Shown: piece by piece, positions 2,361 through 19,990 of the stretch
How the letters are laid out: the number at the start of each line of letters is the position of its first letter
How positions within the stretch are numbered: the first letter of the stretch is position 1
The notes under the pieces: model-generated
Told to the model about the DNA's origin: nothing
Database searches by the model: none
The model's input: only the letters and a program-made list of their open reading frames with translations
Source of the DNA: a candidate division WOR-3 bacterium
GTDB lineage: Bacteria; Hydrothermota; Tepidihabitantia; Tepidihabitantales; Tepidihabitantaceae
Assembly: GCA_039801365.1 (NCBI GenBank)
Contig: JBDRUN010000038.1
Location: forward strand, 1-20,146
Length of the DNA: 20,146 nucleotides
Direction of reading: 5' to 3'
Translations under genes and position numbers: made by a program

Positions 2361-4691
2361 GTGCGTAACCGGGAGCTCAAGAGCCGGGAGTCAAGGGAGA
2401 AGGTGCAAGGTGCTGGGCAAGCTGTAGTCCTGGCGCTTACGGTCTGGCAGTTGGCCGCTGGTCTTGCGCTGAGTGCTGATTTCGGAGCGGTGAACGGTTT
2501 TGTCCGCGATGCGACGAGCGGTGAGCCTCTGAACTATGCCAACGTCTATCTCGAGGGTACCGAGCTTGGCGCCGCCACGAACCACAAGGGTTACTACTTC
2601 ATTGGCAGCGTGCCGCCAGCCGAGTACGAGGTCGTCGCTTCGTTCGTCGGTTACACCTCGGTCAGAAGAAAAGTTCAGGTTCAGGCCGGTCAGACAGTTT
2701 CGGTGAATATCGAGCTGAAGCCGGGTGCGGTTGAGCTGGGCGAAGTGAAGGTTACGGCCGAGCGGGCGCGGTTCGAGCGTGAGATCGAGGTGTCGGTTAC
2801 GCGCCTGGAAACCAGGCAGCTCGCACTCGCCCCACGGGTCGGCAGCGAGCAGGACCTGTTCCGGACCGTCCAGCTTCTACCCGGGGTAGTTACGACCTCG
2901 GATTTCTCGAACCGGCTCTACATTCGCGGCGGGTCACCGGACCAGAACCTCATCCTGCTCGATGGTATCAGTGTGTACAACCCCTCGCACCTATTCGGTC
3001 TTTTCTCGCCGTTCATCACCGACGCGGTCTCGGATGTGACGCTGCTTGCCGGCGGGTTTCCGGCGAAGTACGGCGGCCGGCTCAGTTCGGTTCTCGATGT
3101 GACTACAAAGGAGGGCAACTCCCGGCGTTACACCGGGACCGGCTCGGTCTCAATGATTGCGGCCCAGGCGCAGGCCGAGGGGCCGCTGCCTTTAGGCCAA
3201 ATGACCGATTCGACTTCGCGCCGCAGTTCTTTTCTTGTGGCCGGACGGCGTACTTACCTGCCGGAACTGCTGCTCGCCGCCTTTGATGTCCGCGGGCTCG
3301 GATACTACTTCTACGACGCCGTGGCCAAGGTGAACCATGACTTCGCTGCGGACTCGCGACTGACCGTGTCCGGCCTTGCGGCCGAAGACGTACTTTCGTT
3401 CTGGGACCCGGATAACCGCTCATCCCTGGACTCAAGGATGCGCTGGGGCAACCGCGGTGTGTCGGCCCGGTGGAACCGGGTGTTCACACCGGTGCTGTAC
3501 GGGGAGGTTATGGCAGCCTGTAGCAACTTCTATTCACGGTTTGACGTGTCCTTGGGCGAGGGTCAGCATGCCCAGCTTTCGACCGACCTTACTGACCTGA
3601 CGCTCAAGTCCGACTTGACCTGGTACCTTGCCGACCGGCACACCCTTGACCTTGGTCTGGACGCAAAGTATGTTGGAGTGCGCGCCGGCTTTTCCTACGA
3701 CACCCTGACCGTGGTTCCCCGTGACACGCTTGTGCCAGTTGCGGTCTACGCGGACGAAAAATGGGAGCTGGTACCGGAACGACTGTTTGTCAAGTCCGGG
3801 CTGCGCCTGGCGTATGAGTCCAAGGGCAGCCGGTTCGAGCCGGAGCCGCGCATCGGCATCAAGTACCGGCCGGCCGAGAACACCGCTTTCTCGGCCGCGG
3901 CCGGCCGGTTCTGCCAGCCGATGATAACCCTAAACTCGACTGACGTGGTACTCTCGATCTACGATGTGTGGCTGCCGGTCCCGCGTGGCCGACGGCTGCC
4001 TTCGGCGCTGCATTTCGTCGCCGGGGTTGAGCACTGGCTGGCCCGGAACGTGATTGCCGAGTGCGAGGCCTACTACAAGGACTACGCCGACCTGCTTGAG
4101 GTTCGCTACGGCAGTTTCTTTACTCGGCCTGAATCGCTGCTTTCCGCGGACGGCTACTCCTGGGGCCTGGACCTGTCCCTGCGCCGGACCGAAGGACGAA
4201 TCAACGGCTGGGTCAACTACTCGTTTATGTGGACCCGGCGCAGCATCGGCAAGGAAGTCTATCATCCCCATTACGACCGCCGGCACAGTGCGAACGTGGT
4301 AGTCAACCTGCCGGCATTCGTCTGGGGCGCAGACCTTTCAGCCCGCTGGACCTTGGGCACCGGGTTGCCCTATGCCGGCGCACTGGGCTATTATCCCCAG
4401 TACGTCTATATTCCACAGGAACACCGCACGCGGCGAGAATGGAAGTACATCGAAGGCACGCGCGATGCGTTTCGCTACCCTGTGTATCACCGGCTCGATG
4501 CAAGTTTGACCAGAACCTGGCACAAACACTGGGGTGAGATATCGCTGTTCTTTGACGTCGCCAATCTGTACAACGCCGCAAATGTCCTCATCTACTACTG
4601 GGATTACGAAGCCGAAGGCCAGCCGCCGAAGAGAAAACAGGTCGAGATGCTGCCCATCTTGCCAACGCTGGGCGTGAAAGCGAGGTTCTGA
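2361..4691 (+). CDS. TonB-dependent outer-membrane receptor with N-terminal carboxypeptidase-regulatory-like domain and plug
   Basis: Signal peptide 'AVVLALTVWQLAAGLALSA'. CarboxypepD_reg-like block 'FVRDATSGEPLNYANVYLEGT...GYYFIG...YEVVASFVGY'. Plug-domain motifs 'LYIRGGSPDQNLILLDGISVYNPSHLFGLFS...LLAGGFPAKYGGRLSSVLDV'. Long beta-barrel region of 776 aa in total. GTG start with GGAAG SD 5 nt upstream. TGA stop. Confidence 0.9.
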   Translation: MRNRELKSRESREKVQGAGQAVVLALTVWQLAAGLALSADFGAVNGFVRDATSGEPLNYANVYLEGTELGAATNHKGYYFIGSVPPAEYEVVASFVGYTSVRRKVQVQAGQTVSVNIELKPGAVELGEVKVTAERARFEREIEVSVTRLETRQLALAPRVGSEQDLFRTVQLLPGVVTTSDFSNRLYIRGGSPDQNLILLDGISVYNPSHLFGLFSPFITDAVSDVTLLAGGFPAKYGGRLSSVLDVTTKEGNSRRYTGTGSVSMIAAQAQAEGPLPLGQMTDSTSRRSSFLVAGRRTYLPELLLAAFDVRGLGYYFYDAVAKVNHDFAADSRLTVSGLAAEDVLSFWDPDNRSSLDSRMRWGNRGVSARWNRVFTPVLYGEVMAACSNFYSRFDVSLGEGQHAQLSTDLTDLTLKSDLTWYLADRHTLDLGLDAKYVGVRAGFSYDTLTVVPRDTLVPVAVYADEKWELVPERLFVKSGLRLAYESKGSRFEPEPRIGIKYRPAENTAFSAAAGRFCQPMITLNSTDVVLSIYDVWLPVPRGRRLPSALHFVAGVEHWLARNVIAECEAYYKDYADLLEVRYGSFFTRPESLLSADGYSWGLDLSLRRTEGRINGWVNYSFMWTRRSIGKEVYHPHYDRRHSANVVVNLPAFVWGADLSARWTLGTGLPYAGALGYYPQYVYIPQEHRTRREWKYIEGTRDAFRYPVYHRLDASLTRTWHKHWGEISLFFDVANLYNAANVLIYYWDYEAEGQPPKRKQVEMLPILPTLGVKARF

Positions 4692-5785: not shown

Positions 5786-5813
5786 TTGACACTTTGGGGT
5801 GGACTTCTATGAT
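5786..5813 (+). promoter_or_regulatory. Near-consensus sigma70 promoter TTGACA-16nt-TATGAT, ending 8 nt before ATG 5822 (possible leaderless transcript)
   Basis: TTGACA at 5786-5791, a 16-nt spacer, then TATGAT at 5808-5813. There is no SD between the -10 element and ATG 5822. Confidence 0.45.
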
Positions 5814-5821
5814 TACCTGGC

Positions 5822-6709
5822 ATGCCGAGCGTTAGACGCACGAAATCCATGCTGGCCAGTTCTGAACGCAGAATTCAGAACTCGGCATTCTTTTGCAATG
5901 CACGGTTGTGGCCGATTGTCTTGCTCGTCGGTATTGCAGTACTAATACTTTCCTGTTCGGACGCGCCCCTGATAACACGGCAGGGCAATCGGGTCGCACT
6001 GGTCGAGCTCTTCACCCAGAGCGGTTGAGCGTATTGCGGGCTCGCGGAGCGGGCCCTGGACAGTTTGGAACTGAAATACGGTGATTCACTGGCGGTTGTT
6101 TACTATTTTCAGAACCGGGCGCTGGAGATTCCAGCTGGCGCAGGTCGGGGCCGCTGGTACTACGGGTATCAGCAGTGGCCGTGGGCGATATTCGGTGGAC
6201 GGTCAGGAGCGCAGGTGACCGACCCTGATTCATTCTACTCGTCGTATGATGCGCAGATTACTCGTTGCCGGGCAGATTCGACACCGATAGAGATGTGGCT
6301 GGATTCGACCGGTACGGTCGTCGCACCGCCAAACGTACGGGTGCGGGTAGTGGTGAATCCAACCGATTCGGTAGTAAACAGTATGCGGAATCTTGCGCTC
6401 GTTGCCGTGGTATATGAAGACAGTGTGCCCTACGAGCAGTTACCAGGCGACACCGTCCACGTCCGGTTTGTGGCACGCGCGGTGGTTGGTGATACGTGGG
6501 GAATACCGCTCAGCCTACGGCTCGGACAGGAGTTCGATACGACCCTTGCGGTGACGCTCGGACAATGGCGGACCGGGTATCTTGGCGTCGCCGCATTCGT
6601 GCAGGACACCGCAAACAAGGAAGTGTTGCAGGCGGTGGTCAGACGCAGGATAGCGAACAGTGAAACGGTGAAGGGGCAAGAAGCAGGACCGTCAGGAGGT
6701 GTTCAATGA
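5822..6709 (+). CDS. Thioredoxin-fold lipoprotein with in-frame UGA (6026-6028); candidate selenoprotein with a U-x-x-C active site
   Basis: ORFs 5822..6028 and 6065..6709 share a frame and are separated only by TGA. Read-through gives 'RVALVELFTQSG-U-AYCGLAERALDSLELKYGDSLAVVYYF', which is thioredoxin beta1-CxxC-alpha1-beta2 with TGA at the first Cys position. The N-terminus 'WPIVLLVGIAVLILSCSD' is a lipoprotein signal. An ATGA overlap joins it to the downstream redoxin. Confidence 0.6.
5858..5882. promoter_or_regulatory. Perfect 9-bp inverted repeat AGTTCTGAA-N7-TTCAGAACT (operator-like), 36-60 nt downstream of the predicted TSS
   Basis: Seen directly: arm 5858-5866 is the exact reverse complement of arm 5874-5882, with a 7-nt spacer CGCAGAA. 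It lies inside the first codons of the 5822 CDS. Confidence 0.3.
6038..6056 (+). promoter_or_regulatory. SECIS-like RNA hairpin downstream of the in-frame UGA
   Basis: GGGCUCGC-GGA-GCGGGCCC forms an 8-bp stem (7 Watson-Crick pairs plus 1 G.U) with a GGA triloop. The stem starts 10 nt after the UGA. The loop guanines sit at +21/+22 from the U of UGA, inside the 16-37 nt window described for bacterial SECIS elements. Confidence 0.45.
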
Positions 6710-7266
6710 GAAACTTGAAGACCGGAGCGCTTATTATGGCCGTGACTGCGCTCGTTTTTCTGGCTGCGGGGCCGACGGAGAAGGAAAAGGAATACGAGGA
6801 AGCCCCAAGTTTCACGCTCAAAGACGTAACCGGCAAAGCGGTGACACTTGAAAGCCTGCTCGTGAAGGGACCGGTGTATATGGAGTGCTGGGACTTGCCG
6901 TGCGTGAACTGTATTGCCGAGCTCGACGCGCTGGTGCCCGTTTACGACTCACTCAAAGACCGGGGTCTTCAGATAGTTGCGCTGTCGGTGGACAAACCGG
7001 CCGACGAGGCCCGAGTCAAGGCGTTTGTGAAGACAAAGAAGTGGCCCTATATCTGTCTTTTGGACCAGCAGCAGGAGGTAAAGTCGGCGTACGGCATCAT
7101 CATCAAACCGACCGCTTATCTCATCAATACCGAAGGTAAGATTGTCTATACCCACATTGGGTATAAGAAGGGCGACGAGAAGCGCATCAAAGAAGAGTTC
7201 CTTAAATGGCTGCCCGAGAAGCCGGTTGAGAAGGATACGTCAGGTGCCAAGAAGAAGGACGACTAG
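6706..7266 (+). CDS. TlpA/ResA-like periplasmic thiol:disulfide oxidoreductase (redoxin family)
   Basis: Signal peptide 'ALIMAVTALVFLAAG'. 'APSFTLKDVTGKAVTLESLLVKGPVYMECWDLPCVNCIAELDALVPVYDSLKDRGLQIVALSVD' matches the TlpA/ResA layout with a CVNC active site. Strong SD AGGAGG at 6694-6699. ATG 6706 overlaps the upstream TGA (ATGA). TAG stop. Confidence 0.85.
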   Translation: MRNLKTGALIMAVTALVFLAAGPTEKEKEYEEAPSFTLKDVTGKAVTLESLLVKGPVYMECWDLPCVNCIAELDALVPVYDSLKDRGLQIVALSVDKPADEARVKAFVKTKKWPYICLLDQQQEVKSAYGIIIKPTAYLINTEGKIVYTHIGYKKGDEKRIKEEFLKWLPEKPVEKDTSGAKKKDD

Positions 7267-7315
7267 AAACATCGGGAGCCAGGAGCCAGAAGCCAAAAAT
7301 CAGAAGTCAAGACCG

Positions 7316-8824
7316 GTGCTGCTGCTCTGTGTGCTGTGCGCCGTATTATGCGTTCTGAGCTCGCGTGCCGCGGAGTTCACCATCCAGGGCGTGAACCGGG
7401 CCGAGTTCTGGGCGTTTCAAGAGAACTGGGCGACCCAGATCGAGGACAAACTTGACCTTGTCCTGCGTTACGGGGACTTGCGCGGCCAGCTTGGCCTTTT
7501 CCTGTATGATCCGTCAAGGCCCTGGGATGCAGTGCGCAAGCCACTACGGCTTGCAGACTTCACCGCGGCCTATAGTCCGAGACAGCTTGAGATTCTCTAC
7601 GGCAAATTTTTTCAGACCTTTGGTAAGGGGCTGACTCTGCGGGCGTACAATGACGAGGAGTTCAGGCACTACAAGAGTCTGCACGGCTTGCGCGGTAGCT
7701 TCCAGTTGCCGGTTTCGACCGAACTAGTGGCGTTCGGTGCCAGGCTGCGGGACGTGTTCTTTCAAGAAAACGCTTACAAGATAATGAACGCTGCCGATAC
7801 ATCTGACCAGGTGCTCGGTGCAGATTTGTCGTCCCAGCCGATCGTCTGGCAGGGTTCGGACTGGACCAGGGGCAATTTCGGATTCGGTGGCCGGTACGTA
7901 CGGATAAACCGCAGCGCCGACCCGACGGCCAAGGCATTCACTGAACTTTTCGGCGGCAACACCTCGACCGCGGTCGGCCCGGTCGAGCTGTACGGCGAAG
8001 CGTGCTGGCGACTCGGCACGAGACCTGGTATCGGCGGGAGAGATCGGGGTTTTGGCTACTACGGCAGTGCTACTCTATTGCTTGCCGGGTACTCCATCAT
8101 CGGACAGATAATGGACTACGACAAGCTCGGGTTTCCGACCGGAGTGTATCACTACAACGACCCGCCGACACCGATACTATCCGGCGTGGCGCTGGACCGG
8201 GGCATTGACGAGCGGGGGTTTGGTCTGACCGTAAACGGTTCGCCGTTGACCCAGCTTTACTTCGAAGGCAACTACGGCCGGCTGTTCCGGCACGACGATT
8301 CAAGCGCCGGAGTGCTGGAATGGCAGGGCAAGGCGCGCTATTCGTTCGGGTCTGACTGGACGTTTGAGGGATCGTTCGATCACATGCTGCAGAAGAACGT
8401 GGAGCTTGGTACCTATGAACGTACTGTGGACAAGCCGGTCGCACACGTGAACTACCTCTGGGGTCAGCACACGTTCGGGCTGGAGGCCGAGTACGCATTC
8501 GTGCGCGAGCGGCCGAGCGACACGACTCAAGCAGCCGGACCCTACCCGTGGAAGTACCACGAGAGCGCAATTGCACTCAGCTACGGGCATAGCGAGGCCC
8601 TGCAGTTCACGCTTGGCTGGCAACGGGTGGACAAGAAGCTGGCCAAGCGGTACAACGACGAGACATCGTGGCCAATACTCGAGGCAGTCTGGAATGTGAC
8701 TCAGCGTAACATGCTTCGAATCCGACTCGGCGCGGAGCGGGGAGGATATACCTGTTCGGGCGGAGTGTGCCGGTTTGAGGCGCCGTTCCGAGGACTGAAA
8801 GTACAGTTCATCTCCAGATTCTGA
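7316..8824 (+). CDS. Putative outer-membrane beta-barrel protein (signal peptide, C-terminal Phe); start uncertain (GTG 7316, but the ORF is open back to 7142)
   Basis: 'LLLCVLCAVLCVLSSRAA|EF' is signal-peptide-like. The ~500-aa body is rich in G/Y/F/W/N/T, as in barrel proteins. C-terminus '...GGYTCSGGVCRFEAPFRGLKVQFISRF' ends in an aromatic residue with alternating hydrophobics, the OMP C-terminal signature. The only in-frame ATG, at 7142, would overlap TlpA by 125 nt and add an Arg-rich tail. TGA stop. Confidence 0.55.
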   Translation: MLLLCVLCAVLCVLSSRAAEFTIQGVNRAEFWAFQENWATQIEDKLDLVLRYGDLRGQLGLFLYDPSRPWDAVRKPLRLADFTAAYSPRQLEILYGKFFQTFGKGLTLRAYNDEEFRHYKSLHGLRGSFQLPVSTELVAFGARLRDVFFQENAYKIMNAADTSDQVLGADLSSQPIVWQGSDWTRGNFGFGGRYVRINRSADPTAKAFTELFGGNTSTAVGPVELYGEACWRLGTRPGIGGRDRGFGYYGSATLLLAGYSIIGQIMDYDKLGFPTGVYHYNDPPTPILSGVALDRGIDERGFGLTVNGSPLTQLYFEGNYGRLFRHDDSSAGVLEWQGKARYSFGSDWTFEGSFDHMLQKNVELGTYERTVDKPVAHVNYLWGQHTFGLEAEYAFVRERPSDTTQAAGPYPWKYHESAIALSYGHSEALQFTLGWQRVDKKLAKRYNDETSWPILEAVWNVTQRNMLRIRLGAERGGYTCSGGVCRFEAPFRGLKVQFISRF

Positions 8825-8892: not shown

Positions 8893-9033
8893 ATGAGAGC
8901 ATGCAGGGGCAAGGCTGACGTAAACCGTCGAATCGGGTTTATCGTATTGGCACTTGCCGGAGTCGCTGCGGTTATAGCTGGCATCAAGCTCGGGGATCCC
9001 GAAACAATTCACCGGTTTGCGGCTCAGATATGA
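8893..9033 (+). CDS. Small ORF (46 aa) encoding a single-TM peptide, between the OMP and polyferredoxin genes
   Basis: ATG 8893 follows 'AGGGAAACC'. Translation MRACRGKADVNRRIGFIVLALAGVAAVIAGIKLGDPETIHRFAAQI* has one hydrophobic helix. It is below the 60-aa cutoff of the supplied ORF track. No homology can be asserted. Confidence 0.3.
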   Translation: MRACRGKADVNRRIGFIVLALAGVAAVIAGIKLGDPETIHRFAAQI

Positions 9034-9077: not shown

Positions 9078-10340
9078 ATGCGGAAACGTAGGATCGCGCC
9101 GTTCCGGATAGCCCAGATAGTATCCACTGTTCTTTTGAACGCCTACATTCTGGCTTATCTCCAGAACAAGATATTATACCAAGGATTCTTCAAGCACATA
9201 CCAGAGCCAGTTCTGAACTGCTACGGCGGGCCCCTGGCCGTATTCGCCTGCCCCTTGGGTTCGATGCAGCAGATGATCGGAATGAAGACGGTGCCGTGGC
9301 TGGTTATCGGAGTATTTGTTGTCATCGGCGCCTTCGTGGGCCGGGCCGCGTGCGCCTGGATGTGTCCGTTCGGGTTGTGGCAGGACCTACTGTACAAGGT
9401 CAAGGCCGGGTCCCGGGCTGGCGCAAAACGTTGGGTTGCGGTCGGAGTCATAGGCGGCATCGGCATTCTCGGTATCGCCCTGCTCGTGACATTCCTCCAC
9501 GTTGTCTGGTGGCGGCCTTTGGTGTATGGGTGGGTGCCCTTCATGGCGCTGGTGCTTTTCGTGATGCTTCGGGGCAAGCTTGATATCCCGCAATACCTGC
9601 ACGTCGGCGGCTTTGTCGCCGGCGTTGGGCTTGGTGCGTTCGTCTGGCTTAAGTACGGTGCTGGGTTCGGCGTGGTCGCCGGCGTGGCCGGAATGGTTGC
9701 TATCGGACTACTGGGCCGCTGGTACGGAGCAATAGTTGCGGCCCTGGCCGGGTTCCTTCTGGCCCGGTTCGGGCCCGATTTTGCTGTCGGCCCACTTTCG
9801 GGTGCGACGCTGGGCATCGTACTTGCTGCGGTCAGTGCCGGGCTCGTTTTAGTTCTCGACGTTTTCGCCGGACTGCGGCTGCCGTCAACGTTTCTCAAGT
9901 ACGGCTTTTTTGTACTCGTGGCCGGGGTGGCTTCGTATTTGACAGTTGAGCCATGGTTCTGCAAGCTGTGCCCCCAGGGTACGCTTGGCGCCGGCATACC
10001 GCTTGTCCTCTGGGACCCAGTAAACGCCCTGCGCGGACTTGTCGGCTGGCTGTATTGGGTCAAGGTCGGAATCCTGCTTCTGGTCGTGGCTGCGGCCATC
10101 GCCATCAAGCGACCGTTCTGCCGGCTGGTCTGTCCGATTGGCGCAATCTACGGCGTGTTCAACAAAGTTAGCCTGCTGCGTCTGCGCCTGGAATCGGCGA
10201 AATGCACCCGTTGCGGGCTGTGCCGCAAGGTGTGCCCGATGAATATCGAGCCGCTTGACGAGCAGAATCAGCTTGAGTGCATCCGGTGTTTCGAATGCGT
10301 CTGGCGCTGTCCAAAGAGCGGTTTACGCATCACCGTCTAG
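9078..10340 (+). CDS. NapH/MauN/CcoG(FixG)-type membrane polyferredoxin (4Fe-4S-binding integral membrane protein)
   Basis: Repeated membrane-proximal C-x3-CP motifs 'RAACAWMCPFGLWQDL', 'FCKLCPQGTLG' and 'FCRLVCPIGAIYG' (the NapH/NosR-type xCxxxCPxGalQd signature). Multiple TM helices. C-terminal ferredoxin motifs 'CTRCGLCRKVCP' and 'CIRCFECVWRCP'. TAG stop. Confidence 0.8.
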   Translation: MRKRRIAPFRIAQIVSTVLLNAYILAYLQNKILYQGFFKHIPEPVLNCYGGPLAVFACPLGSMQQMIGMKTVPWLVIGVFVVIGAFVGRAACAWMCPFGLWQDLLYKVKAGSRAGAKRWVAVGVIGGIGILGIALLVTFLHVVWWRPLVYGWVPFMALVLFVMLRGKLDIPQYLHVGGFVAGVGLGAFVWLKYGAGFGVVAGVAGMVAIGLLGRWYGAIVAALAGFLLARFGPDFAVGPLSGATLGIVLAAVSAGLVLVLDVFAGLRLPSTFLKYGFFVLVAGVASYLTVEPWFCKLCPQGTLGAGIPLVLWDPVNALRGLVGWLYWVKVGILLLVVAAAIAIKRPFCRLVCPIGAIYGVFNKVSLLRLRLESAKCTRCGLCRKVCPMNIEPLDEQNQLECIRCFECVWRCPKSGLRITV

Positions 10341-10360
10341 AGGCTACACTTCCCGCCGAG

Positions 10361-11278
10361 ATGAGAAAACCGGACTGGCTCAGAACAAGGCTCGCGACCG
10401 GGCCCGAATTCGAGAAACTGAACCAGCGGCTGCGGCGCTTGGAGCTGAAAACAGTCTGCACGCAGGCCCGGTGTCCGAATCTCGCCGACTGCTGGGGTCG
10501 TGGAACCGCGACGTTCATGATTCTCGGCAATGTCTGCACCCGACGCTGCCGGTTCTGCTCGGTCGCGACCGGGAATCCACACGGCGCAGTTGACAGGACC
10601 GAGCCCCAGCGAGTGGCCGCGGCGGTAGCCGAACTTGGCCTACGCTACGTAGTCCTCACATCGGTAAACCGGGACGACCTTGAAGACTGTGGTGCGGGCG
10701 CATTCGCACTGACCATCAACGCCTGTCGGACTTGTCCAACAGGTCGAATCGGACCAACGTGTGAGCCTCCCGGCATCGAGGTGCTCACACCGGACTTTGG
10801 CGGCCGGGAGGCGCTGATTCATCAGGTGGTCGAGGCCGGGCCGGACGTGTTCGGACACAATATCGAGACAGTCGAACGGCTGAGTCCGGTGGTACGCGAC
10901 GCCCGGGCATCGTACCGGCGTTCGCTTGGAGTGTTGGCGCTGGCGAAAAAGCTGGCACCAGCGAAGATGGTGAAGAGCGGGTTGATGGTCGGGCTGGGCG
11001 AGACTGACGCCGAAGTTGAGCAGGCGATGCGTGACCTGCTTACGGCCGGGTGCGACATCATTACCATTGGCCAGTACCTTCAGCCAAACCACCGATGCCT
11101 GCCAGTCCGGCGCTATGTCGAGCCGGCGCGATTCTCCGAATGGCAGGAGCAGGCGCTGGCGCTTGGTTTCAGTTCGGCGTACTGCGGTCCTTTGGTACGA
11201 AGCTCATTTCACGCGGAAGAAGTTTTGCGTGGGACGGGGCTAAACCATCTCGGCTTCAAGTTTCCAGAAAGACCGTGA
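10361..11278 (+). CDS. lipA: Lipoyl synthase
   Basis: 'KPDWLRTRL', 'CTQARCPNLADCW...GTATFMILGNVCTRRCRFCSV' (the radical-SAM CxxxCxxC plus the second cluster motif), and the C-terminal 'TIGQYLQP...H' block. ATG 10361 lies 20 nt after the upstream stop. The GTG 10277 of the ORF track lies inside the previous gene. Confidence 0.95.
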   Translation: MRKPDWLRTRLATGPEFEKLNQRLRRLELKTVCTQARCPNLADCWGRGTATFMILGNVCTRRCRFCSVATGNPHGAVDRTEPQRVAAAVAELGLRYVVLTSVNRDDLEDCGAGAFALTINACRTCPTGRIGPTCEPPGIEVLTPDFGGREALIHQVVEAGPDVFGHNIETVERLSPVVRDARASYRRSLGVLALAKKLAPAKMVKSGLMVGLGETDAEVEQAMRDLLTAGCDIITIGQYLQPNHRCLPVRRYVEPARFSEWQEQALALGFSSAYCGPLVRSSFHAEEVLRGTGLNHLGFKFPERP

Positions 11279-12642
11279 GCAGTCTGACCGAGCAGCAGAT
11301 AGCGCGCGGGCTTCGGGTGTCGGTCATCGAGGGTTCATTTGCAACACTCTATGCAACTCTGGCTGGTGGGATGTTTCTCACCGGCCTTGCACTCTACCTT
11401 GGGGCAAATTCGTTCCACATCGCGCTGATTACTGCAATTCCAGCGCTCGTGACCGGGTTCGGTTTTTCGGCCGGGTATCTCGTGCGCCGGGTCGGCTCGC
11501 GCAAGAAACTTGTTATCGTCACTGCGGGAATCGGCCGGGCGGTCTATGCGGTACTCGTGCCGTTCCTCTTGCTGCGGATGCGCGTCGGGCTCGGACTCTT
11601 CTTCGCAGTCGTCGCGGTTTCGAGCATCCTAATGACAATGGCCGGTACAATCTGGACTTCATGGATGAGCGACTTTGTTCCGGAAGACCGGAGGGGCCGG
11701 TTCTTTGGTACGCGGAACGCGATTCTCGGTATCATCGGTGTCACGGCTGCCTATGCGGCGGGCCGTGGCATGGACGGACTTAAGGCTGCCGGACTCGAGC
11801 CGCTCGGATACGGCATCGCCTTTGGACTGGCGGTGGTGTTCGGACTGGGCTCGACCATCGGTCTGTTCCAGCAACCTGAGCCGAAGCTTGAGCCCAGGCC
11901 GGCTTCGGGTCTGCGTGAGCTTCTGTTCGGCCCGCTGCGCGAGCCGCAGTTCCGTCGGCTCACTGTCTTCCTCGCAGTTTGGTTTCTCACCGGCACGCTT
12001 GCCTCGCCGTTCTACATCGTGCACTTGCTGAAAAACCTGCGCTTTCCCTTCGCAGCCATCGGCGTGTATTCGATTCTCGGTGGTATGACCGGAATGGTAT
12101 TTCAGCTCGTCTGGGGTCGGCTCATTGACCGTTTCGGCGCACGGCCGGTAACGGTGCTCAACTTCGGGGTAGTCGGTGTGATGCCCCTGCTCTGGCTGTT
12201 TGCGACTCCGAGTTTCCGGCTGCCGATATGGCTGGACGGGCTGTGTAACGGCATCATCTGGTCCGGCGCGAGTCTCGGACTGTGGAATCTGCTACTGGAA
12301 CTTGCGGACAATCCGGCCCGCAAGGAGAGCTATTTCGCTATCTACACGGTCGTAACTGGACTGTGCGCGTTCCTGGCGTCGCTTCTGTCCGGAGTCATTG
12401 CCCAGTCTCTACACGGTTTCCGGGTTGTGGTGTTCGGACAGGAGTTTGTGAACTACGATGTGCTCTTTCTCGCCGCCGGGGTGGCGCGGTTTGCTTGCCT
12501 GCCCCTACTGGTACGGGTCCAAGAGCCGGGCAGTCAGTCGGTCCCGCATACTGCCCGTGTGCTCTCAACTTGGGCGCTCTGGCGTATCAACTCGGGCAAG
12601 GATGCGCTCCTCGAAGCACTCGGGCTTCGAAATCGCGAGTGA
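11275..12642 (+). CDS. MFS-type transporter (12 predicted TM helices), translationally coupled to lipA
   Basis: GTG 11275-11277 overlaps the lipA TGA 11276-11278 (GTGA). Product 'SSLTEQQIARGLRVSVIEGSF...' carries many hydrophobic helices and a 'GRLIDRFGARP'-type loop motif typical of MFS. The long 5' extension in the ORF track (11050) overlaps lipA and is discounted. TGA stop. Confidence 0.8.
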   Translation: MSSLTEQQIARGLRVSVIEGSFATLYATLAGGMFLTGLALYLGANSFHIALITAIPALVTGFGFSAGYLVRRVGSRKKLVIVTAGIGRAVYAVLVPFLLLRMRVGLGLFFAVVAVSSILMTMAGTIWTSWMSDFVPEDRRGRFFGTRNAILGIIGVTAAYAAGRGMDGLKAAGLEPLGYGIAFGLAVVFGLGSTIGLFQQPEPKLEPRPASGLRELLFGPLREPQFRRLTVFLAVWFLTGTLASPFYIVHLLKNLRFPFAAIGVYSILGGMTGMVFQLVWGRLIDRFGARPVTVLNFGVVGVMPLLWLFATPSFRLPIWLDGLCNGIIWSGASLGLWNLLLELADNPARKESYFAIYTVVTGLCAFLASLLSGVIAQSLHGFRVVVFGQEFVNYDVLFLAAGVARFACLPLLVRVQEPGSQSVPHTARVLSTWALWRINSGKDALLEALGLRNRE

Positions 12643-12690: not shown

Positions 12691-12742
12691 CACCGTCCGC
12701 ATGGAAGAGAAGATCAGGATTGAAGTTTAGGAGAAAGGACTT

Positions 12743-13021
12743 ATGGCACACAAGAAAGGCGGCGGTACAGCAAAGAACGGCCGAGATTCTGCCGGCCAGC
12801 GCCTGGGCGTGAAGTGCTTTGGTTCCCAAGTGGTGCGCTGCGGTAACATCCTGGTGCGACAGCGCGGCACCAGGTTTCTGCCCGGCGTGAACGTCCGGCG
12901 GGCCAAGGACGACACGCTGTTTGCAGCTGCGGATGGCGTGGTCCGGTTTGATTTCGTGTCGAAGAACAAGAAACGCATTTCAGTAGTTTCAGGAGAAACG
13001 AGCTGCATACGACAGCACTAG
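12743..13021 (+). CDS. rpmA: 50S ribosomal protein L27
   Basis: '[69 protein letters not shown]' is the classical L27 sequence pattern. Strong SD. TAG stop. Confidence 0.95.
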
Positions 13022-13127
13022 TGAGACAAACCGTCCGGACCGAATTTCCGGTGGTGCCTGTACCGCCGGTCCCGGTGTGCCTTGTGTCGCAGCATCCGGG
13101 TTGGTCCGACAAGGGGAGGAGAAGAAG

Positions 13128-13784
13128 GTGAAGGTGAAATGGTTCGGTCACGCGGCGTTTCTTCTTGTCGCATCCGACGGCACGAAGATTATCGCTGATC
13201 CGTACATTCCTGGATGCTTTGATAATGCACTGTGCTATGGTCAGATTTCTGAAACAGCCGACGCGGTAACGGAAAGCCACGATCATGATGACCACGCCGG
13301 AGGCCGGATGCTGCCCGGACGCCCACCGGTACTGCGGGGCGCGGGCGAACATCAGGTCAAGTCCATCACCATCACCGGTCTTGATACTGCGCACGATGAC
13401 GCGGCCGGAGCAAAGCGCGGCCGCAACACGGTGTTCCTTTATTGCATTGATGGTCTGAAGATTGTACATCTTGGGGACCTTGGTGAACCCCTGCCCGCGG
13501 CGGTTAGCTCAGCCATAGGACAGGTTGATGTGCTCCTGGTACCGGTCGGCGGCTATTTTACGATTGACGCGACCCAGGCTCACAAGACAGCAGAAGCGCT
13601 CGGTGCACGTATCATCATTCCCATGCACTACCGGACCGGAAAATGCAGCTTTCAGATTCAGCCAGTTGACCAATTTCTTCAGGGCCGGGTCGGGGTCCGA
13701 CGCTTCGGTACGAGCGAAGTAGAAATAACCAAGGACAAGCTGCCTGCAGCGCCGGAGATTTGGGTGCTGCACCATGCTCTTTGA
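13128..13784 (+). CDS. UPF0173-type metal-dependent hydrolase (MBL fold)
   Basis: GTG 13128 follows SD AAGGGGAGGAG at 13111-13121. 'MKVKWFGHAAFLLVASDGTKIIADPY...ESHDHDDH...VHLGDLG...IIIPMHY' matches UPF0173 (MKITWLGHA...IDPF...H.H.DH). The upstream part of the ORF-track start (13077) lacks an RBS and looks spurious. Confidence 0.8.
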   Translation: MKVKWFGHAAFLLVASDGTKIIADPYIPGCFDNALCYGQISETADAVTESHDHDDHAGGRMLPGRPPVLRGAGEHQVKSITITGLDTAHDDAAGAKRGRNTVFLYCIDGLKIVHLGDLGEPLPAAVSSAIGQVDVLLVPVGGYFTIDATQAHKTAEALGARIIIPMHYRTGKCSFQIQPVDQFLQGRVGVRRFGTSEVEITKDKLPAAPEIWVLHHAL

Positions 13785-18560: not shown

Positions 18561-19990
18561 CTTTCGTCATGATTTGGACCTGCCCTAAACAGGTTCTGCA
18601 GTGACTGTAGTCATGCAACCTCCTGAGTCGGCACACCACTAGCATATTTGCCCCTGTGCCCAGCATCAAGTCGGCGCTCAGCCCGCCGTAGGTCATAAAG
18701 CAGGCGCAGAAGGTCGGTTCCAGCCAGCAACCGCTCCAGCTTCTCTCGGTAACGCTTGGCCAGTTCGGGTCTGGCCAAGAGGCGCTGCAGCGGCGTATCC
18801 ACGTTGTAGCGCTTGCCGACCCGCGGCCCCACCCTTTCCTTTGCCACCAGCTTCATCGAGGGCATGAACAGGTTGCGCTTGAGGGCTATCAGCCGGTCCA
18901 GCCGCGCCAGCGCCAAGTTCTCTTGCTTCGTGTCATACCGCCGGTAGCCAGCGTAGCTACGCACCAGCGCCCAGTTCTTGCTTTCCACGTAAGGCGAGTC
19001 GTTCTTCTGGTACGCCCGGGACCTGGTGAAGGGCAGTTTCTGTTCCTCGGCAAACGCCGCCAGCGCCTGGTTGATAAACTCGCTGCCATTGTCCGAACGG
19101 ATGGCAGTAGGCTGAAAGGACAGCGAGCGGAAGATGCTCTTCATCGCCAGCAGCATCCAGATGTGAGCCTTGTTGCGTAGTAGCCGCAACTCGGTCCAGC
19201 CGGTGATTATCTCGGTGACTACCAGCGTATAGGCAAACTCACCGCAAGGGCTCTGCCCTCCGTGACTTACCAGGTCTATCTCCAAATACCCGAGCTGCTT
19301 CTTGGGTTTGTCATGGCAGGTCTCGACCGGGATGCGTTTCTTGAGCCAGGAGGCAAAGGGGTTGGACTTGTAGCGGCGTTTGGCCAGCAGCTCGGCTTGG
19401 ACCGGTCGGAGCAGGCGGTCGACTGTGGACGGACTGATAGTCTTGAGTTTATCTTTGACCTCGGCTGATGCCTTCCGGAGCTTGGGATGACAGAAGAGCC
19501 GCTGATGGTTGAGGCGGATGAAGTGAGCGAGGTGGATCGAGGATGGGTAGCGGGCAAGCTGCCAGAGGAAGAGCCGGTAGCACAGCACATCCGGGCCGTA
19601 GCGTTGCTTGCGGCCGCGGCGCTAAGGGAGTGAGCAGGTGGGGTCTGCGATGATAGTAATGCTCGTTGGGGTAGCGATGTTCCTGCCGGCGTTGCAGAGC
19701 ATGAAGCTGAGATACTTCCGGCCAAGACGTGTGAGGTGTGTCAGCTTGTTTAGCAGCGTGGGCTTGGTCTTCTTTCTTGTGGTCCGATACTTGGGGGCAT
19801 TGGCAGAGACGATGGACTTCTTAGCGGTCACGGTGTAGAGTCCTTCTGGGTATTGTGGCTACCATTGGGTGTTCTCCTTTCGGTCAGACCTGAAGAATGC
19901 CCTTGGTACCCTGCTTTTTCAAGCCCAAACAGACCTGAATCCATACCGACGAAACAACCCTGCTTCGGGTAGATATTTATGACGAAAATC
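18560..19990 (-). mobile_element. IS-like element carrying the transposase; boundaries tentative (inverted TTTCGTCAT core at 18562-18570 and 19979-19987)
   Basis: A shared 9-mer TTTCGTCAT (reverse-complemented) flanks the transposase. The inward continuations resemble each other only partially. GC content is visibly lower (about 50%) in 19640-20030 than in flanking DNA. An RBS AAGGAG and a 14-codon uORF ('MVATIPRRTLHRDR*') sit just upstream of the transposase GTG. Confidence 0.25.
18611..19831 (-). pseudogene. rve-superfamily DDE transposase (IS30-like D-D-E spacing) interrupted by in-frame TAG at 19622-19624
   Basis: Catalytic-core motifs 'GYLEIDLVSHGG', 'IRSDNGSEF' and 'SPYVESKNWALVRSY', with D-62-D-33-E spacing. 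An HTH-like segment 'KTISPSTVDRLLR' precedes them. The 69-codon ORF 19622..19831 (GTG) and the 325-codon ORF 18611..19588 share one frame, separated by a single amber codon. Confidence 0.7.

Follow-up and report, generated by a model that had tools for sequence, protein, structure and literature searches.

A gene that public annotation records only in part lies at positions 5822..6709 of contig JBDRUN010000038.1 (assembly GCA_039801365.1), a forward-strand stretch of 20,146 nt that was analysed whole and is called the window here; its source is a metagenome-assembled genome (MAG) of candidate division WOR-3. Two open reading frames (ORFs), 5822..6028 and 6065..6709, share one frame, and the sole stop between them is the TGA at 6026-6028. 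Read through, they give a product of 295 amino acids (...NRVALVELFTQSG-U-AYC-GLAERALDSL...). The GenBank entry holds only the 214-amino-acid ORF 6065..6709, as hypothetical protein MEO0081869.1 (locus tag ABIL25_06215). Here we report evidence that 5822..6709 is one gene encoding a selenoprotein, in which the TGA specifies selenocysteine (Sec); we give this reading a probability of about 0.88. The protein, of ~295 amino acids, is an exported, probably lipid-anchored, member of the Omp28 / HBP35 / DUF1223 superfamily with a thioredoxin fold. The original prediction had described the frame split only by the TGA, the position of that TGA at the first redox Cys of a thioredoxin-like layout, an 8-bp hairpin at 6038-6056 with loop Gs at +21/+22 in the geometry of a bacterial Sec insertion sequence (SECIS), and a lipoprotein signal 'LILSC'. 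The split frame was confirmed from the sequence and the hairpin coordinates proved exact; the evidence on the other points is given below, and on homologues, hairpin and downstream start each refuting condition that the prediction had set came out in its favour.

Database relatives of the protein fall into fragments and full-length Cys forms. A search of 5.8 billion proteins returned 22 relatives, 21 of which are fragments of 164-208 amino acids beginning shortly past the TGA column at inconsistent starts; the sole full-length one, P0022 (248 amino acids), carries 'LVELFTWQRCVYCPYAAHTLDSL'. A wider profile search gave 26 close clusters, all of them C-terminal fragments of 164-208 amino acids, together with ~80 more distant full-length relatives at 26-37% identity, named in their sources as Omp28-related, thiol-disulfide isomerase or DUF1223. 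The 12 representatives at E <= 1e-30 in a library clustered at 50% identity were, without exception, called with a truncated N terminus. Cys-containing homologues at the exact position of the TGA were looked for and found: P0022 ('LVELFTWQRCVYCP'), P0218 and ~80 further full-length homologues have Cys at this column, which gives CxxC, and the alignment of 80 full-length relatives has the consensus 'FTWQRCxYCP'.

Orthologous DNA was taken from NCBI MAGs, Logan assemblies and Joint Genome Institute (JGI) metagenomes, and 25 distinct sequences were compared. The stop at the shared column is TGA in all 25 and TAA or TAG in none, at protein identities of 35-81% and across independent samples and assemblers. 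These sequences are free of further stops and of frameshifts, and they show selection to either side of the TGA. Every locus retains, upstream of it and in the same frame, the signal peptide, an invariant Cys with S(D/E)AP after it, and the beta1 strand 'ANRxVLxELF'. In the window this Cys is Cys45 (codon 5954-5956), followed by 'SDAP', and its lipid anchoring is probable from the sequence pattern. In-frame coding conservation also continues downstream of the TGA, and the 36 nt from the TGA to 6065 are kept as in-frame coding sequence ('AYCGLAERALDS'). We looked for a separate downstream gene with termination at the TGA and saw none. The called starts of the downstream fragment vary among orthologues (M, V or L, in differing columns); because the gene callers' starts are inconsistent, there is no conserved start at 'ELKYG', where a gene with its own start would begin.

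The hairpin begins 9 nt past the UGA, inside the coding sequence. It has a stem of 8 bp (6038-6045 with 6049-6056) and an apical loop GGA (6046-6048); a possible weak lower helix of 3 bp (6034-6036 with 6061-6063) is 85% paired and shows no covariation. The bacterial SECIS consensus comprises a loop of 3-9 nt, an upper stem of 4-16 bp, a G in the first two loop positions, a UGA-to-loop spacing of 16-37 nt and a minimum free energy (MFE) of <= -7.5 kcal/mol (PMC13188914), and the hairpin lies within all four published constraints. Across the orthologues the loop is 3 nt long with G first (GGA, GGC or, in one sequence, GUC), the UGA-to-loop spacing is 17 nt, and for the 45 nt past the UGA the window gives an MFE of -18.2 kcal/mol, the mean of the 25 sequences being -16 kcal/mol.

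The orthologues conserve the hairpin, with compensatory changes. In the 25-sequence alignment (A3), 97% of the cells of the 8-bp helix are paired, and both partners have changed at three of the eight pairs: pair 17/33 (AU 16, CG 7, GC 2), pair 19/31 (GU 19, CG 3, UG 1) and pair 20/30 (CG 21, UA 2, UG 1). The covariation score is significant, at 0.209 vs 0.087 +/- 0.014 in shuffles, and was reached by none of 500; with the 3' arm slid by 1-3 columns it is at most 0.078. Synonymous sites within the stem are frozen, Ala+7 being GCG in 25/25 and Arg+9 CGG in 22/25, whereas in other conserved Ala/Arg columns the commonest codon stands at only 0.48-0.73. Three sequences that read U-PAY-C have an extra Pro codon, and in them the hairpin is displaced by 3 nt along with it. 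The hairpin is missing from the two closest Cys-form genes with DNA compared (L009 and L015), where the MFEs are -4.8 and -4.2 kcal/mol. Metagenome loci L043-L095, which are classical DUF1223 genes, also have no conserved hairpin; they are a poor negative control, GC-rich sequence folding to similar energies.

The place of the TGA within the fold was read from an AlphaFold model of P0022 (predicted local distance difference test 90.4, predicted template modelling score 0.86). In this model, residues 32-126 run beta1, CxxC, alpha1, beta2, alpha2, beta3, alpha3, which is a thioredoxin-like fold, with Cys42 between beta1 and alpha1 and an invariant Pro directly before beta3; residues 132-247 form a beta-sandwich. 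The corresponding domain of the window protein (5987..6277) has the order beta1, UxxC, alpha1, beta2, alpha2, Pro121 loop 'WPWAIFGG', beta3, alpha3, and alignment A1 shows little or no variation at the Pro, Phe and Gly of this loop.

Profile searches placed the protein near several curated families at scores below their cut-offs. It matches NF033782 (lipoprot_Omp28) with 42.8 bits vs a cut-off of 150, almost end to end (profile positions 34-261 of 264); NF045500 ('Omp28-related selenoprotein') with 28.1 bits (E 1.3e-6, cut-off 200, profile positions 38-265 of 377); PF11551 (Omp28) with 19.4 bits vs 34.9; and PF06764 (DUF1223) with 16.9 bits vs 30.7, over residues 60-86 only (profile positions 1-27). 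Glutaredoxin, redox_disulf_1 and Uxx_star gave marginal matches, and Por_Secre_tail, the sorting domain of the type IX secretion system (T9SS), had no match in the window protein at E <= 1. The layout is that of an Omp28 lipoprotein, with a 'LILSC|SDAP' signal (lipidation predicted), a thioredoxin-like N-domain and an Omp28 beta-sandwich, and the two-domain fold of HBP35 is also present. Fold searches gave no solved structure of a close family relative. Two statements of the original prediction need revision accordingly: the C-terminal domain, said to have no obvious homology, matches the Omp28 / HBP35 / DUF1223 beta-sandwich, and the novelty that was assumed is lower, since an Omp28-related UxxC selenoprotein class is already curated.

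Sec use was observed in a sister genome. MAG GCA_039801285.1 holds an orthologue of the gene (L003) and, on a separate contig (L015), genes in the order Omp28/MAM protein, Cys-form paralogue P0218, T9SS protein, 97-amino-acid ORF, YedF and SelD. The last two score 180 bits against TIGR03527 (YedF, directly upstream of SelD) and 344 bits against TIGR00476 (SelD). The selD gene (L015:2965-4002) carries TGA (3007-3009) where Sec canonically stands, 'FAKAAG-U-ASKVC', and an 8-bp hairpin comes after it. GCA_039801285.1 decodes Sec, because its SelD has a TGA at the canonical Sec position beside YedF. SelD is annotated in many WOR-3 MAGs, although the SelD accessions retrieved for two clusters lay outside the accession range of the window's own MAG; our SelD search of genome contigs returned mostly Dehalococcoidia and other phyla, and one WOR-3 locus, L096.

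The Cys forms of the lipoprotein family were also seen near selD. Relatives of the P0022/P0218 clade lie ~0.02-2.7 kb upstream of it in three loci (L009:3148-5114, L015:549-4002 and L096:33-4223), accompanied by yedF in L015, and 27 of ~81 Cys-form proteins are apparently on the same contig as a SelD match, some of these contigs being 4-8 kb long. This suggests that the lipoprotein family has a conserved link to selenium metabolism. The SelD of L009 (4503-5114) has 203 amino acids and an active-site Cys, and lacks ~140 internal residues; L009 belongs to a MAG that yielded a Cys-form homologue only, and the 203-amino-acid SelD was also called in an independent Logan assembly, L010. The selD of L009 may be decaying in a lineage that swapped Sec for Cys.

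Explanations other than Sec insertion were weighed against these data. The UGA could be read as Trp, Cys or Gly without selenium, by local suppression or a lineage-wide code change, with the hairpin acting as a read-through stimulator or having no function. UGA reassignment is known in some uncultured bacterial lineages, and the Sec machinery is not demonstrated for the MAG of the window itself. TGA, however, is an ordinary terminator in 8 of the 15 well-supported genes of the window, including the selenoprotein gene itself, and therefore UGA is not reassigned; it likewise terminates 9 of 11 genes in L015. A standard amino acid also sits badly with a site that is the redox Cys of CxxC and is Cys in homologues, with a hairpin that fits bacterial SECIS geometry, and with a lineage that has YedF and whose SelD has TGA in the classical place of Sec. 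We consider such a reading improbable.

The remaining accounts deny that there is a single intact gene. Two products might be made, a 68-amino-acid lipopeptide that stops at the TGA and, from the TTG at 6065, a separate protein of ~214 amino acids; such a TTG start is present, and GenBank (MEO0081869.1) and all gene callers annotate the downstream fragment only. Against this, no start codon is conserved among orthologues, the 36 nt before 6065 are conserved in frame, the downstream piece would be left without the signal peptide, beta1 and the first redox residue of a thioredoxin fold, and the full-length Cys homologues are single proteins. Alternatively, the gene could be a pseudogene, or the stop a sequencing or assembly error, as MAG assemblies do contain errors and the related locus L009 has an internally deleted SelD. 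The presence of TGA in 25/25 sequences with conserved flanks excludes sequencing error or a pseudogene, and makes two separate genes very unlikely; a conserved TGA across 25 divergent sequences, with no further lesions and selection on both sides, has effectively refuted the pseudogene or error already.

Several points weigh against the selenoprotein reading or limit its reach. Neither the window nor ten loci gave a tRNA-Sec with ARAGORN, and no selA, selB or selD was found in the 20-kb window or in the flanks of orthologues; SelA, SelB and tRNA-Sec were absent from all the other sequences analysed as well. The folding check that the original prediction called for returned the hairpin, and its energy alone is not significant: with a z-score of -0.99 for the MFE of 6020-6085, it was equalled by 31 of 200 shuffles, in DNA that is 59% GC here. 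Single-sequence fold energy, being unremarkable, was not used as evidence; the case is therefore built on the comparison of related sequences. Kinship among the 25 sequences inflates the shuffle test, and the four inner stem pairs are invariant and overlap conserved Ala-Glu-Arg codons, so that their conservation may be partly at the protein level. The Rfam gathering scan of the window gave zero matches, an element of this type not being expected in Rfam. The AlphaFold model is that of a Cys homologue 32-34% identical to the window protein, built on a 106-sequence alignment. Function is not transferable by family membership, because the scores against curated families are far below their cut-offs. 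We infer the insertion of Sec at residue 69 itself from the comparisons above, and the redox partners proposed below are drawn from gene order.

The features of the locus are listed in Table 1. The sigma-70-like promoter is a consensus match, of which 0.7 would be expected by chance in a 2-kb scan; its nearness to the ATG at 5822 implies either that the mRNA is almost leaderless or that translation starts from the second ATG (5849).

Table 1. Features of the selenoprotein gene and the conserved gene string that follows it in the window
Feature	Position	Strand	Basis or remark
Sigma-70-like promoter, TTGACA-16 nt-TATGAT	5786..5813	+	11/12 matches; ends 8 nt before ATG 5822
Proposed complete selenoprotein coding sequence	5822..6709	+	295 codons including Sec69; own stop TGA 6707-6709
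N-terminal signal peptide ending in lipobox-like 'LILSC'	5822..5956	+	Read from the sequence
Alternative start ATG (Met10)	5849	+	Within the selenoprotein coding sequence
Thioredoxin-like domain, residues ~56-152	5987..6277	+	P0022 AlphaFold model via alignment A1
In-frame TGA, read as Sec (U69), first residue of the U-A-Y-C redox motif	6026..6028	+	TGA in orthologues, Cys in homologues
TGC codon, Cys72, putative resolving Cys of UxxC	6035..6037	+	Cys in 25/25
Bacterial SECIS-type hairpin, GGGCUCGC-GGA-GCGGGCCC	6038..6056	+	Fold, alignment and published criteria
C-terminal beta-sandwich of Omp28 / HBP35 / DUF1223 type, residues ~155-277	6284..6652	+	Family and fold matches
ResA/TlpA-like exported redoxin, invariant 'ECWDLPCVNC'	6706..7266	+	ATG overlaps selenoprotein stop (ATGA, 6706-6709)
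DUF6029 protein with signal peptide, probably an outer-membrane beta-barrel	7142..8824	+	Real start probably ~7270-7300
Small single-transmembrane ORF, 46 amino acids, ending 'GDPETIHRFAAQI'	8893..9033	+	Conserved in L001, L003, L005, L012, L014
NapH/MauN-like membrane polyferredoxin (Fer4_5 and 4Fe-4S dicluster)	9078..10340	+	Family matches
Lipoyl synthase LipA	10277..11278	+	TIGR00510, 361 bits; conserved in the operon
Major facilitator superfamily (MFS) transporter, end of the conserved gene string	11050..12642	+	Start probably later than 11050

The downstream genes form a conserved operon with the selenoprotein gene. The redoxin, which holds Cys only and no Sec, follows directly in 20 of the 24 other distinct loci; of the remaining four, one lies on too short a contig and three are the U-PAY-C sequences, which have other neighbours. 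The DUF6029 and NapH-like genes are present downstream wherever the contig reaches that far; DUF6029 has been reported to resemble the Wzi outer-membrane barrel (PMC9603273). All the orthologous operons that were examined have the 46-amino-acid ORF between these two genes, where gene callers often miss it, and LipA sits between the NapH-like ferredoxin and the MFS gene in every locus of sufficient length. The TonB-dependent receptor and DUF4249 pair found upstream were considered as part of the system and set aside, the pair not being conserved with the gene; the receptor was also considered as a FCYXU-type selenoprotein and rejected, its end reading ...KARF.

In the U-P-A-Y-C subclade (L020:200-259, L022:6-65 and L023:2959-3018) the extra Pro codon past the TGA gives UxxxC spacing. 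Its genes are not followed by the redoxin/DUF6029 operon; the neighbours in L023 are BNR-repeat genes upstream and a CarboxypepD_reg gene downstream.

If the gene is decoded by the general bacterial mechanism, SelB with Sec-tRNA(Sec) would bind the hairpin at 6038-6056 and deliver Sec at the UGA 6026-6028. Sec69 would occupy the nucleophilic first-Cys place of CxxC, in the loop between beta1 and alpha1, and Cys72 would resolve it, the two forming a selenenylsulfide/selenol-thiol redox couple. The protein would then be a cell-envelope selenol/thiol-disulfide oxidoreductase, probably exchanging electrons with the translationally coupled redoxin, and reducing power might reach it via the NapH-like polyferredoxin, beside the DUF6029 barrel. 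We hold this specific scheme of partners tentatively, at somewhat less than even odds; the lipidation and the direction of electron flow are likewise deduced.

The kind of protein is already known. NF045500 corresponds, according to a 2026 review, to 'hypothetical protein GOS_C' (UxxC) (PMC13188914), which Zhang & Gladyshev described in 2008 as a selenoprotein of thioredoxin-like fold and without known function, represented in the GOS data by 74 Sec and 312 Cys sequences (PMC2398784). The window protein shares with it the UxxC motif in a thioredoxin-like fold, the Omp28-type architecture, the existence of Sec/Cys pairs and a SECIS hairpin just past the UGA. It is, however, a member of a divergent, separately evolving clade, which is small (12 clusters at 50% identity), comes from WOR-3 MAGs and mostly non-marine metagenomes, and has its own 'CS(D/E)AP' signal and its own operon, whereas GOS_C is known from marine surface reads without any context.

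The other relatives differ more. HBP35, the 35-kDa hemin-binding protein of Porphyromonas gingivalis (PDB 5Y1A), has ~15% identity to the window protein and Cys instead of Sec; it also carries the C-terminal sorting domain of a T9SS cargo, a domain missing from the window protein. Its thioredoxin activity needs its two active-site cysteines, and it binds hemin (PMC2907840); hemin binding is not predictable for the window protein. Compared with the Omp28 outer-membrane lipoproteins (PF11551, NF033782, PDB 2R2C), the window protein scores under both cut-offs and Sec replaces Cys. The DUF1223 genes compared (PF06764; Atu2684, PDB 2AXO), most of which come from soil metagenomes, encode Cys and read 'ELYTSEGCxSCPPAD'. 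Sec-containing thioredoxin, thiol:disulfide interchange, DsbA-like and DsbG-like selenoproteins share the UxxC chemistry in a thioredoxin fold, and several of these families are likewise exported (PMC13188914, Table 1), but they have another domain architecture without the Omp28-type beta-sandwich and gave no significant sequence match.

UxxC thioredoxin-fold selenoproteins are the commonest type, and the understanding of Sec decoding is unchanged by the present case. What it offers is a new selenoprotein clade for candidate division WOR-3, which we did not find among the lineages in the selenoproteome reviews consulted; a full-text literature search gave nothing relevant pairing Omp28 with selenoprotein or WOR-3 with selenocysteine. 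It also corrects a systematic mis-annotation, every public copy being recorded as a truncated hypothetical protein. The Omp28-related (GOS_C) selenoproteins gain a genomic setting, namely a conserved envelope redox operon and Cys paralogues linked to yedF/selD, and an 'unknown redox function' becomes a set of testable hypotheses, among which a connection with selenium handling, drawn from the yedF/selD neighbourhood of the Cys paralogues, is speculative. One such hypothesis is that the Omp28/HBP35-like lipoproteins of WOR-3 and relatives form a cell-envelope system for capture or reduction of selenium, or of another chalcogen or metal. It is raised because Cys-form paralogues lie repeatedly beside yedF and selD, and because the Sec clade sits in a fixed operon with redoxin, barrel, small membrane peptide, NapH/CcoG-like reductase and MFS transporter. 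We think it rather unlikely; if true, the selenoprotein would be a surface or periplasmic reductase of an undescribed uptake route feeding SelD and not a generic antioxidant.

Two loci (L005:9377-10399 and L014:8785-9760) encode, at the 3' end of the same operon, another Omp28-like protein, which bears a T9SS sorting domain and has no counterpart in the window. Both copies have a conserved in-frame TGA (9476 and 8884, respectively) in 'RVVVLEEAYQED-U-GSC', followed by a hairpin CCAGCG-GUA-CGCUGG, which makes this paralogue a candidate for a further unannotated selenoprotein. Elsewhere in the window, a 242-amino-acid ORF without Pfam/NCBIfam match (12741-13469, minus strand) is found in the 1.1-kb gap past the MFS gene, and an integrase-core (rve) transposase gene (18611-19588, minus strand) lies near the 3' end.

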